From: Podarcis liolepis
Taxonomy: Eukaryota
Assembly: GCA_965112155.1 (NCBI GenBank)
Contig: OZ218101.1
DNA length: 64,000 nucleotides
Reading direction: 5' to 3' (one strand)
Part shown: piece by piece, positions 6,317-52,073 of the stretch
Layout: every line of letters starts with the position of its first letter
Numbering within the stretch: position 1 is the first letter of the stretch
Position numbers and translations under genes: made by a program
The notes under the pieces: generated by a model
The model's database searches: none
Seen by the model: only the letters and a program-made list of their open reading frames with translations
What the model was told of the DNA's origin: nothing

Positions 6317-6401
6317 AACCTGAGGTAATATTTCTGGGTTAGCGGAGTCTGTAACCTGAAGTGTATGCAACCTGAAGCATATGTAACCCGAGGTACTACT
6401 G
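6317..6401. mobile_element. Family-A MITE, right part only
   Basis: TTTCTGGGTTAGCGGAGTCTGTAACCTGAAG...AACCCGAGGTACTACTG followed by TA. Confidence 0.8.
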
Positions 6402-7160
6402 TACATTTCATTCATTGTTACAACTCATAGCTCACTTATGTGAAGAGGTTGCAAGTGTGAACAAGCCCAGTGGATCTAGGAATCACCTGCCCCCACAGCC
6501 TTCCGAATTCTATCCCACAAAGCAAAACTAGTAAAAACAACTCACTCTCTAGAAAAAAGCAACTCAGGTAATAACATTGGCCATTTGCTAGGCCAGAGGG
6601 AATACATGCCCACAAACCAGTTTGATTATGTTTGGCAGAAGGCAGCCATGCACATGCTCCCCAGCAAGCGCTGGCAATTTTGTCCTGTGGTCTGCAATTC
6701 TGCAGGTGCAGAACTCCCAGTTCAAGTGTGCCCAAAATGTTTTCCTTTGTGATATTCTCTCTCACCTGAATGTCTTTGTCTCCTAATTTTCCTCAGGATA
6801 CAGCAGAGCTTCTGCCAAATCAATTAAATTGTCCCAAATGGGGTTTTGTTTCTGGGATGTAAATAACAACATTTTGTGTATCAGCAGTCCAGGAAGAAAC
6901 CTCAACTACTGCTAATGGCAGCAGTTTTTGTACTGAGCCGGGATCACCTTGTTTTGGACAATAAGCACATAGAATGATGCTTTCTACATCAAAGTAAGAG
7001 TGTACATATGGGGTGAGGCCTACCTTCTCTTTCCCTTTACCCTGGTTATTTTACAAAGAATTAAGATGAACCTGACAAATTATTCAACTGTTGGCTCTTC
7101 ATTAATGAAAAACTTTTTTTGGGTGTGTGTCTGCCTTTATTTGCTGAAATTACTGAATTG

Positions 7161-46160: not shown

Positions 46161-47365
46161 GCCTCAGGTAGGCATAGGCCTGTGCTTGTGAACTGGAAGC
46201 ATGAGACGGCTCTCTTTGTACATCCCTGGTTGTTGGTGAACTGCAGGTGCCATATAATAGGCCACAGATTTGTTACCCCCATTCCTCAGCCTCTATGGGG
46301 ATGCAGTAGCCCTTAATTCACTCACATGTGCAAAGCCTTTCTGAGATGCTCTCACATTACAGGCTGCAAAGCATTACAGGTATTATTTGTAACTAGTCGG
46401 TTCCCCAGCTGACATTCCTCTCCCTTTCAAGATACCATGAGCTGCTCCTCTCACCAAGACTTTTATTTTATTTTTAATTCCAAGACAGTGCCAGCTAAGA
46501 GCCTGAAGGGACTGAGTGACGCCGGAAGATTAAACAGGCTAGATACATACAGTTTAGTTAAACGATGGACACAATATCTGTCTCTGAGGCTCTTTTTGTA
46601 CTTCTTGAAGCACGTTACACTGAGCTTTATTTTATTTATAATTTGTTTTTATTTGCACGCAGCAGGAGAGATACTAAACTCGCCGTAAATGTGACATGGA
46701 GACGTAGCATCGCATAGCTGCAGATGTTACATGAGGTTAACATGATGCAGTTAAACTGCTGTGTCAGAAATGCTGCCCCAGCGGGGAAATAATAACACAG
46801 CCTCTCGGAATTGGCTCACACAGCTAGTGGACACAAGGCATCCTTCCTGGCCTTGAATCTGCAAGTAGCTATGCATGTGGGGAAGAGGCAGGCACTAAGC
46901 AGCTAAGGAGTACCAGGCTGGGACTTTAAATTCTGAACCTGTTAGCAGCGCTGACAACTGGAGGAGCCTTGTCACAGAAACACCTGCAATGCCTCATTGA
47001 TCAGTAGTTGAGAAAAGGAAAGAGGAGAGGTAATAATAGGACATTAAGCCAGCATGTGCCCAATGCACAGAACCAGTAGGACGCAGAAGCCGTGGTAACA
47101 GCAACATAAACAGAAGGGAGAGATTAACTTAAGGCAATAGGGAGCACCTGGATATTCCACAATGGAGCAGGGATGCTCAAAGAATTTGGTAATTCATTAT
47201 GAACTGACCTGGCCCAATGTGCACCTTAGTTATCCTTCTTTCATATTTCCTAAATCAACTGTGCTGGTCCCGGGGGGGGGGGGGAGGTACTAATACCGTA
47301 GCCAAAGTTCAGTCCAGAGTCACTAGCAGGGTAGACGATCACTAGATGAGACGCGAGGTCCGAAA

Positions 47366-47572
47366 CAGGGAGCCGGGCGGGTGAACAGGAACGCTGGTAG
47401 GGCAGCAGCAGGAAGCCAGGCGGGGAACAGGAACACTGGTAGGGCAGAAGCAGGGAGCCAGGCGGGGAACAGGAACACTGGTGGGTCAGCAGTGGGCAGC
47501 CGAGCGAGGAACAGGAACACCGGAGAGTCGGTAGCAGAAAGCCGGGCGAGGAACAGGCACATTGGGAGTGCA
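47366..47572. repeat. 42-bp tandem repeat (~4.5-5 units) inside LTR 1
   Basis: GAACAGG(A/C)AC-initiated units at 47383, 47425, 47467, 47509 and 47551. Confidence 0.9.
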
Positions 47573-47656
47573 GATCTAGGTCTGGGTAACAGCAGGTACT
47601 CCACAACGACGTTGCTCCCGCAACCTGGGACCGGGCTGCCTGACCTTTATCTTCTT

Positions 47657-48007
47657 CTAAGGCCGGGGGCGGTCCCGGCCCCCAGGAGCCCCGCCTCTCC
47701 TGGCCTTAAGGCGAACACTCCTCCTGGGAGAAACCAGTTCCCTTCGCCTCTCTGCCCTAAGCCTCTGCAATTCAGGAGAGGCCAAAGGGTTACTGGGCCC
47801 CCGGGGAGGCTCACCTGTAGACACTGAGTCCTCCAGCACCTCTGGGGCCAGAATGGTTTCACCTGGTGCCTGCCCCTGAGGATCTGGCACAGGTGCGGGC
47901 TCCTCAGCATCTAGGCCTTGCCCCAGTTCAGCTGGCCCTGGAGGCAGGGACTCCTGTGCCGGCTGGGATTCCTCCGGTTCACTCTCAGACTCGGAATCCC
48001 AGGCCAT
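47657..48007 (-). CDS. LTR-encoded ORF, 116 aa, acidic/Pro-rich N-half and Arg-rich C-end (SPRRSVRLKAR)
   Basis: ATG at LTR nt 5; open to TAG at 47657. Coding status is inferred. Confidence 0.5.
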   Translation of the reverse strand: MAWDSESESEPEESQPAQESLPPGPAELGQGLDAEEPAPVPDPQGQAPGETILAPEVLEDSVSTGEPPRGPSNPLASPELQRLRAERRRELVSPRRSVRLKARRGGAPGGRDRPRP

Positions 48008-49896
48008 CACATCAACCTTTGGCAACCTGGGGCGCAACAGATATTTTGGACTGCAACTCCAACTGGAGCCCAGCTGTTGTGTGGGTTTTGTAACACCCCT
48101 TTCCACAATTTTCACTAGGGAGGGGAGGGCTGTGGGCAGAATGAAATCAATAAATTGCAGACCTCAGTGAGCCAGGGCATTGCATTTGGGGAGAGTGAAA
48201 GTGGTGGGAGGCCACCATAGATGGGCGCTGTTCAAAAGAAGACTTACTGCTCACTGCTGAAAAGCATTTGAAAGTCTAGTGGGGAGGATGATGAATGGTG
48301 CTGTGACTGGGCCAGGTGGGTCCTCCTAAGTTCTTGGGGTGCTTGGCCAGTGCCCAACTTGTAGGGACTCTCATTGGTAGCAAACAACATGTGAAATTTC
48401 ATTTCCTGCTGGAGCCTATAAGGGGATGGCTGTGCCTGACTTGAATTGGAGTCACCTTATTGCAGGTGGGGTTCTTTTTGGCATATTGAGCCCCTATATT
48501 TTTAAAATATTCACCACATTCACATTTGTGCTTTCCTAGTCATCAGGAAGTTTAGAATTCAAAGGCAGAAAGTCACCCGGGGTCCTCTACTTCAAAGCAC
48601 ACCCTAGCAGATTAGCCAGTGTGGTTCAGATTTTGGTACCGTGCACTCCACATCAAGTAACTTTAGTAAATATCATTAATGCAGCATTGCTTAAGCAAAT
48701 GGGCCCAATGAAGCAGTTCCTTTCAAGCATCCCCCATCCCCGATTCCTTTTGTTTGTTAATCTCACTGATTAACCAAGGGACACATTTTCAGCTAAAGCT
48801 TTATTCCAGGAGCTGCCAATCTGCTTTAGCCCATGGGCATGTTTGCAAACCAGAGAAACTGCTGAGTGCAGTAGATGGTTTATTTCAAGCCCAACCAGGG
48901 AAGAGGCAGGGGAAGGAGACCCTGTGGGCAGCACGGAAGGCCTCTGTGGGTGCATCAGTGACCATGGGCACCACCTTGGTGATCCCTGCTTTAACCAATC
49001 AATTGAATGTGAACATTTTGCAATGCTGCATAGGAATATAGAGGAAGCCCCATTCTCAGCTGCCATTCTAACCCTAATCCCCTGCATTGGACATAATAGA
49101 TCTACCAAGCACTCCTTCTATTAATCTCACAGAAACCTGATGTGTAGATGGGCACATGCAATTCTCCTTTGAACAAGGCCCTTCCCTTAATTGACTTTAG
49201 CTCTTATTACACATTTCTTATCAGAGTCCTTAGAAAACTTGCACGTGTTTTTGCACCACTCATCAGCAGTGTCTCCAAGGTGCAGGGTTTCCTTCAGGAG
49301 GAGATGGGCAGCCGGCAGGCAAAAGGGATAATTGCATGGCGAATGAAATTCTACGGCACATTGGAGATGGAAATATCACCTTAACAAGCATGGACAGCCC
49401 CCAATGGACTATAAAATTCATTTGGTGAGTGAGATAATTCAAAGAGCCAAGTGACGCAGCAGTAGGAGCTAGAACACATAAATTTAAGCTTTCAGAGCTC
49501 CACCAGGATCCAGCAGAGCCCCCAGTGTGCTTTATGTGGGTACACAAAAATCTTGCAGGCATTCAGTGCTGATCAATCCAGATCAATCCTCTCTCTGTGT
49601 GTGTGCACAAAGTTTGTGCACAAAATCTGTGCACAAAGCCTGCACATGAAGTCCAGGTCATGCAGTGAATATTTTGGAACTGACCCCATGCTGTGTCCTT
49701 CTGCCGAGAACTGTATGGTCCCTTCTCTTTTTTCCTTTCTAAAAAGTTTTTAGCATTGCCAGTCTCGTTACTGAAACTAATACTGGCTAATATATTAGTT
49801 TTACTCTGATACTGTTTTTGTTGTGTTCAAGTGGTTTCATTTAACAAATATTATGAGGACTTGTCCTTAAAGAGCAGGCGGGGGAATAAAGTCAAT

Positions 49897-51830: not shown

Positions 51831-52073
51831 TGTCATGGGCTCAGGGGCTGAGCCACAGCAGGAGGAGGAGAGGAAAAGGTGGATTAAAGCTCGGGTCTTG
51901 AACTGGTGTAGAGGAGGGGAGGAGTCAGACAGAGCTTTGCCGGTCTAAGGACTCAGACGTAGCGCTGCGCGCCACGGATGTCAAACCAACAATGAACCAC
52001 AATAAAGACTTTTGTTTATAAAGAGCAACTGGCGTTGGTCCTCTGTGAGCTAGGACCTGAGGCAGCGCTGACA
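51831..52073 (+). mobile_element. Solo LTR 3 (243 bp), internally deleted relative of LTR 2
   Basis: TGTCA...TGACA ends; perfect TSD AGTGG (51826-51830 / 52074-52078); AATAAA at ~52001. Confidence 0.92.
51835..51948 (+). CDS. LTR-encoded mini-ORF, 37 aa (MGSGAEPQQEEERKRWIKARVLNWCRGGEESDRALPV)
   Basis: ATG at LTR nt 5; in-frame fusion of the N- and C-terminal parts of the LTR 2 ORF. Confidence 0.45.
   Translation: MGSGAEPQQEEERKRWIKARVLNWCRGGEESDRALPV

Follow-up and report, generated by a model that had tools for sequence, protein, structure and literature searches.

An integrase tail encoded in the LTR of a lizard chromovirus and its HMGN-like motif

The open frame of LTR 1, a solo long terminal repeat located in a 64,000-nucleotide stretch of DNA from Podarcis liolepis (contig OZ218101.1; this whole stretch is here called the window), is the last 117 residues of a chromovirus integrase. 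The U3 region of these elements codes for the integrase tail, and we are inclined to think that the RRSARL motif of this tail probably docks on the H2A-H2B acidic patch, tethering the integration complex.

LTR 1 and its open frame

LTR 1 (47260..48011, minus strand) is 752 bp long and corresponds to subfamily A of a Ty3/gypsy chromovirus family, whose LTR pairs lie 5.1 kb apart in two full-length elements (L031 and L032). Since its TG...CA ends (TGTGATGG...CCAGCACA) are flanked by a 5-bp target site duplication (TSD), GTTGA, at 48012..48016 (upstream copy) and 47255..47259 (downstream copy), it is a solo LTR. On the minus strand, the following parts can be differentiated: (i) the U3-encoded integrase C-terminal tail (47657..48010), with 117 codons plus stop, which in 3' LTRs is the in-frame continuation of pol; (ii) within this tail, an acidic, Pro-rich spacer (47783..48010) that differs among subfamilies, also by in-frame indels (18 and 30 nt); (iii) ASPELQRLRAERRREL (47735..47782), a predicted charged helix with 15 of its 16 columns common to five subfamilies; (iv) the HMGN-like motif RRSVRLKA (47702..47725), which reads RRSARLKA or RRSARLQA in most copies; (v) a TATA-like GATAAA directly past the stop codon (47646..47651), at the same position in the five subfamilies and with a putative promoter role; and (vi) in the R/U5 part, 4.9 copies of a 42-bp tandem repeat (47366..47573) whose length is specific to subfamily A.

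The original prediction, which was silent on the strand, had described an open reading frame with a 116-aa product, acidic first and then Pro-rich, followed by a predicted helix and an RRSVRL motif. The observation was confirmed on the minus strand: the ATG is at LTR nt 5 (48007) and the stop at nt 353-355, which gives 116 aa from the ATG, RRSVRL is at 47725-47708, and in a natural copy of the family (L002) residues 1-77 contain 17 D/E, 17 P and no K/R, while the last 40 residues contain 14 K/R. Judging from this composition, the spacer is likely to be a disordered tether.

A search of the 1.57-Gb genome with the LTR gave 2168 candidates, the best 40 of which were scored (94-100% identity), and copies of the family were found on most large contigs. 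The nearest named proteins are from Podarcis (84-91% identity). With the frame alone as the query, one protein among 38 candidates of similar length was recovered, a Podarcis fragment made up of a chromodomain plus the tail. No Pfam family was found for the LTR 1 frame, the last 40 aa of the tail had no PDB sequence match at E<=10, and in the ESM Atlas chromodomain clusters under 0.9 were the only matches.

The frame in full-length elements

Two LTR pairs 5.1 kb apart (L031 and L032) were examined, and in both the paired LTRs are 99% identical. According to Pfam, their frames encode gag, protease, RT, RNase H, integrase, a Tf2-type SH3 domain and, at the integrase C-terminus, a chromodomain (PF00385, E=9e-15, residues 1084-1131 of P0002). 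In both elements, the chromodomain frame crosses the polypurine tract (...GRGDG), enters the 3' LTR (VMAWDSESES...) and terminates at the LTR stop; both are broken at other places. As the pol frame extends beyond the chromodomain and ends inside the 3' LTR, the LTR 1 frame is the C-terminal tail of the integrase.

The chromodomain was also searched for in the genome. Among the best 150 of 2870 candidates, open-frame lengths around the chromodomain, counted by hand, were 1558 aa in 33 cases and 1564 aa in 27. Thirty chromodomain loci were retrieved, 28 of them belonging to the group of LTR 1 and two to other chromodomain genes; the frame runs uninterrupted from the chromodomain into the RRSARL tail in 22/28 loci and is lost within the G-rich junction in the other six. 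A replicating sublineage without the tail was considered and rejected: five of these six, all of them A2 copies, show 81 differences from one another, and in-frame copies 80 (21 loci). The five do not resemble one another more than they resemble in-frame copies, and apparently reflect separate slips or base-call errors.

Regarding classification, these elements show gag-PR-RT-RH-IN between the LTRs, a C-terminal chromodomain, TG...CA LTRs, a polypurine tract and a TSD, as Ty3/gypsy chromoviruses do, and their nearest protein matches are chromodomain-bearing Gypsy proteins. Their chromodomain has the Y-W-Y aromatic cage of group I chromodomains, like that of HP1 (PMC3605345): in the alignment, Y, W and Y stand opposite Y, W and F of CBX5/CBX1. 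This Y-W-Y chromodomain is predicted to read methylated H3 tails.

Four further observations concern the full-length elements and their chromosomal location. The sequence past the 5' LTR of L031 (1207-1230; GTTTGCTCCCGCC...) does not have the TGG start of the usual tRNA primer site. On contig C2 (104475170-104485323), three chromodomains lie exactly 5005 bp apart in frames of 1558 aa, likely as a head-to-tail array with common LTRs. Contig C20 holds a large share of the internal-region matches from several chromovirus families, and may be the W chromosome or other low-recombination sequence. Finally, L032 is nested within GCA-rich tandem repeats beside a family D LTR (213-470 and 6352-6663).

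Expression of the frame on its own

Two uses of the peptide had been originally suggested: an integration tether, if fused to integrase, or a chromatin modulator or transactivator, if expressed alone. The former has gained ground, in that the frame is fused to integrase, the motif of the family is nearer to HMGN than that of the window copy, and the block which contains the motif is selected at the protein level; tethering itself stays a candidate function.

The latter is unsupported. It would have the LTR frame translated separately too, from its own ATG, into a 116-aa protein that modulates chromatin from thousands of solo LTRs, and we consider this very improbable. Accessory genes that overlap U3 exist in retroviruses, every placed copy has its ATG at LTR nt 5, and Podarcis gene models (P0005-P0007, automatic predictions) start at the methionine of the tail. 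But in retroviruses such U3-coded accessory genes have a frame separate from pol, and in the full-length copies studied here the frame is continuous with pol. Besides, in one natural copy of each subfamily (A, A2, B, C and D) the stop is within about 15 nt of the TATA-like ATAAA or overlaps it and, in consequence, the frame lies upstream of the likely start site. The ATG itself belongs to the terminal inverted repeat (TGTGATGG against CCAGCACA), LTR 2 has AGG in its place, and old solo copies have decayed at the anchor codon of the motif. As for transcripts, three RNA runs of a related species, each sampled at 6-12%, yielded 212, 197 and 148 reads. LTR reads on both strands, seen in all three runs, speak for a separate protein; a GT-AG joint into U3, which would speak for it as well, was found in none of the 212, 197 and 148 reads of these shallow samples. 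Few reads were internal, and in the two bulk libraries nearly all of these came from one strand. In solo and 5' LTRs, LTR 1 among them, the frame would be a passive passenger, located upstream of the LTR's own likely promoter. There is also an annotation trap here, in that solo LTRs of these families bear frames of 100-200 codons which gene finders splice onto gag.

Conservation of the motif and selection on the tail

The motif originally reported, RRSVRL, is real, but it is not the form of the family: the family form is RRSARL and the valine of the window copy is a rare variant. Conservation across copies, proposed at the outset as a check, was confirmed in 30 subfamily A loci (a set that includes the window copy and five loci with one common flank), as RRSARL is present in 24 of them (19 in frame) and the remaining six comprise two RRSVRL, two RRSAHL and two different sequences. 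RRSARL is also at the motif position in 27/28 loci of the A2/B set. In the older families C and D, in each of which 27/30 loci could be placed, RRSARL is kept in 12 and 11 copies, respectively, the main departure being decay of the fifth motif codon (the putative anchor Arg, a CpG codon) in 11/27 C and 11/27 D copies; in any case, this codon is still the commonest one in all sets. The U3 regions of the five subfamilies, all from one genome, are 76-93% alike.

The family form, RRSARL-K/Q-A, matches the HMGN core RRSARLSA at 7/8 positions, and the window copy at 6/8. By chance, shuffling produces RRSxRL in 0.13% of cases for the whole tail of the window copy and in 0.9% for its last 40 aa. A match of at least 7/8 to RRSARLSA appeared in 5/40,000 shuffles of the whole tail and 8/40,000 shuffles of the last 40 aa, in a test chosen after seeing the motif.

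Selection was studied in 72/118 loci (open frame of 105-131 aa, a loose match to the block, duplicates removed) by means of net pairwise divergence between subfamilies and Fisher tests. Between A and D, helix and motif together show 4.6 silent changes on 17 sites and 0.1 replacement changes on 49 (helix: 3.9 on 12.7 and 0.06 on 35.3; motif: 0.74 on 4.5 and 0.03 on 13.5), and the spacer shows 14.5 silent changes on 45 sites and 23.3 replacement changes on 117. The scarcity of replacement versus silent changes in the block is significant (p=0.0007), as is the difference between block and spacer (p=0.0003), while their silent rates are equal (p=1.0). The columns common to the five subfamilies amount to 15/16 in the helix, 0/3 in the linker, 5/6 in the motif (the unshared one being the decaying CpG codon) and 18/54 in the spacer. 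CpGs at codon starts are kept in all five subfamilies in 4/6 cases, against 2/17 for other CpGs. Indels between subfamilies are of net 18 or 30 nt ahead of the motif; in R/U5 they are many and of any length. This pattern of divergence, along with the in-frame indels, indicates that the tail is under selection as coding sequence, the block being its constrained part. The helix-plus-motif block is, hence, under purifying selection across the five subfamilies.

The stronger signal is in the helix, and the data leave selection on the motif and on the helix unseparated: for the six motif codons alone, conservation relative to the spacer is not significant (A vs D, p=0.12). Since the motif codons have accumulated less than one silent change, constraint acting on their DNA would be compatible with the data too. 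All this bears on a different explanation, according to which the selected unit is the ASPELQRLRAERRREL helix, binding another host factor or the integrase itself, and RRSARL is kept by chance or as a DNA promoter element. The numbers just given for the helix, the distance of about 60 nt between the motif and the downstream TATA-like box, and the proposal that the functional unit of plant CR domains is a helix with an Arg-rich start (PMC11302176) are all in its favour; yet the three linker residues vary freely, as opposed to the motif, and the silent rate of the block is that of the spacer. We regard this explanation as rather unlikely.

The basic end of the tail could instead be a nuclear localization signal (NLS) or a generic nucleic-acid-binding patch whose likeness to HMGN is incidental. 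The classical bipartite NLS pattern is present in 22/22 A, 13/13 A2, 5/5 B and 15/17 C copies; related long tails all end in basic sequence with no common motif; and putative NLSs are described for beet CRM integrases (PMC3605345). Nevertheless, subfamily D lacks the pattern in 14/15 copies and keeps R-R-S-A-R-L-x-A, the non-basic Ser, Ala and Leu are also kept, and the patch is Arg-rich, with one or two Lys at most. An NLS or generic patch is, to our mind, unlikely, although less so than selection on the helix alone.

The likeness to HMGN and the proposed mechanism

Returning to docking on the acidic patch, some structural precedents are available. According to a cryo-EM study (PMC12487698), the fifth residue of RRSAR in HMGN2 (R26) and of RRSSR in Dsup (R367) enters the pocket formed by H2A E61/D90/E92, and the Dsup motif PPRRSSRLT binds the acidic patch. 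Yeast Dot5, an unrelated protein, has RRSARIAT in the same role (PMC13347269). The lizard motif does not seem to come from the host: the frames of L031 and L032 gave no HMG14_17 match (PF01101, E<=1), and capture from a host HMGN gene was ruled out by codons. In the host HMGN-like loci, two of four of which held the motif, Ser is TCN and Leu is TTA; in the LTR motif, Ser is AGT and Leu is CTT or CTC. This difference in codon choice favours convergence over capture. In L328 (1500-1700) there is an HMGN-like copy, decayed and seemingly intronless, with RRSARLSA and several stops.

The mechanism would operate as follows: (i) the tail would be translated from genomic RNA as the end of pol and retained on the mature integrase; (ii) past a long acidic leash, the helix and the HMGN-type anchor would dock on the acidic patch, the fifth motif residue acting as the arginine anchor in the manner of HMGN2 R26 or Dsup R367; (iii) the chromodomain cage and RRSARL, separated by a leash of roughly 95 residues, would bind the integrase to the nucleosome at two points; and (iv) the choice of integration site would be affected. 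A prediction of the complex between the last 40 tail residues and the genome's own H2A/H2B gave a score of 0.02, obtained with no alignments and for a peptide outside the calibration of the tool. Around 44 insertion sites, no 10-bp periodicity was detected (P=0.85), in a test of low power. These same 44 sites (A, C and D) have A/T five bases to each side of the duplication centre (37/44 and 39/44) and G as the first duplicated base in 23/44, a symmetric target preference.

More tentatively, it is conceivable, if short of probable, that a convergent HMGN-mimic anchor in the LTR makes the intasome a two-point reader, and that the LTR-coded tail is an exchangeable slot, occupied in related lineages by RRSARL, an AT-hook-like motif or an Arg-rich LxW motif. 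If so, LTR swapping could alter the integration location of an element.

Distribution among LTR families and other chromoviruses

LTR 1 had been described as non-alignable with LTR 2 and LTR 3 in spite of a common reading phase. Both points hold: the best blastn match is of 21 nt (E=0.026), and the phase is T-GTG-ATG in LTR 1, T-GTC-AGG in LTR 2 and T-GTC-ATG in LTR 3. A full-length LTR 2 element likewise has a chromodomain frame, although a degenerate one, that continues into the LTR; the common phase of LTR 1 and LTR 2 is thus due to the fact that both frames continue pol into the LTR. The pol proteins of the two families are 47% identical over 1040 aa, and LTR 2 and LTR 3 are 72% alike over 202 nt. 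The RRSxRL motif is not shared by LTR 2/3; LTR 2-type families have an Arg-rich LxW motif at their end.

LTR 2 (50952-50196, minus strand, 757 bp, TSD GGTGT) is a solo LTR, as is LTR 3 (51831-52073, plus strand, 243 bp, TSD AGTGG). In LTR 3 the spacer is almost entirely gone, but a 38-codon frame remains with RKRWIKARVLNWC, matching RKRWSKARVLSWC of LTR 2, and the ending in other families is RRRLGVKQLLCW; this end looks like a second conserved terminal motif. One member of the LTR 2 family (L063, 5290-6705) has a chromodomain without the aromatic cage, about 150 acidic residues ahead of the LTR and a far longer tail.

In other chromoviruses, an apparent enrichment of RRSxR past the chromodomain (7/128 vs 1.0 in shuffled sequences) was biased, as the query held the motif and one of the seven proteins was of LTR 1's own family. 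The claim was dropped because queries without the tail gave RRSxR in 0/72 clusters from 102 metagenome and viral loci, and in 1/128 proteins versus 1.2 expected (150 matches, of which 22 chromodomain-only or short ones were dropped), this second negative being weakened by the many tails in the survey that are chimeric gene models. The single protein has RRSARIAAR shortly past the chromodomain. From these comparisons of sequence, the RRSARL tail motif is lineage-specific and no general feature of chromoviruses. Proteins of Rhineura floridana and Vipera latastei have a long acidic-Pro-basic tail with different ends (the LTR boundary being placed by the look of the junction), and one chromovirus family of the genome (L064) ends right past the chromodomain.

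Past the chromodomain, an AT-hook-like [RK]GRP[RK] is present in 15/128 proteins (P0173, P0181, P0185 and 12 more) versus 0.2 in shuffled sequences. In these 15 integrases, one of them named as Astyanax, RPRGRPRR stands directly past the chromodomain; they are probably related lineages. No report of such a motif past the chromodomain was found in the literature search.

Comparison with known systems

A close design is that of the plant CRM elements of group A (RLG_Cereba, Beetle), whose CR motif is coded in the 3' LTR (PMC3059260) and whose putative targeting part sits on a poorly conserved tether (PMC11302176); in beet Bingo elements, pol also reads into the LTR (PMC3605345). Pol enters the 3' LTR in the lizard element as well; in CRM-A, the LTR codes for a putative targeting part made up of a helix with an Arg-rich motif, joined to a spacer of low conservation. 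But while the CR motif of CRM-A (TRARAR/K) replaces the chromodomain and has CENH3 as its modelled partner, the lizard element has an intact group I chromodomain upstream of the polypurine tract, to which the LTR adds RRSARL, and there is no TRARAR/K in its tail. The plant CRM design of an integrase tail coded in U3 occurs, then, in reptiles.

With HMGN, Dsup and Dot5, the tail has in common a short motif in a low-complexity chain (7/8 positions with RRSARLSA; SPRRSARLK vs PPRRSSRLT in Dsup). Unlike HMGN, it is part of a retrotransposon integrase, has no PF01101 match and uses codons that differ from those of host HMGN; the likeness is one of sequence. If the tail motif binds, the HMGN motif would have arisen by convergence once more.

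Acidic-patch tethers are known in foamy-virus Gag, LANA and IE1 and have been suggested for MLV p12, (PMC9040877, PMC5072296), and integration sites are redistributed once the PFV Gag tether is lost (PMC9040877). Like the foamy virus Gag CBS, MLV p12, KSHV LANA and CMV IE1, the tail is a candidate acidic-patch tether in a mobile-element protein; unlike them, being Gag or DNA-virus proteins, the candidate anchor is on the integrase, is LTR-coded and has an HMGN-type sequence. If the motif binds, the tether would be on the integrase itself, as opposed to the described mobile-element cases, which use Gag or DNA-virus proteins. Both ingredients are already known, LTR-encoded integrase tails in plants and acidic-patch tethers in foamy-virus Gag. 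In the literature searched, mostly outside subscription journals, no report was found of an integrase that combines the two, of a retrotransposon integrase with an HMGN-like motif or of the tail described here in reptiles.

Finally, the element resembles vertebrate and fungal chromoviruses (Sushi-like) in domain order, in the chromodomain at the integrase C-terminus, in the TG..CA LTRs and in the 5-bp TSD. It differs from them in that most Sushi-like chromoviruses have at most a few dozen residues past the chromodomain, 15/128 carrying the AT-hook-like RGRPR there. If its motif binds, the short peptide described here would bear on how vertebrate chromoviruses choose chromatin. In general terms, the tail is LTR-coded in the manner of CRM and its anchor is likely of the HMGN type, while the element is a member of neither CRM nor HMGN.
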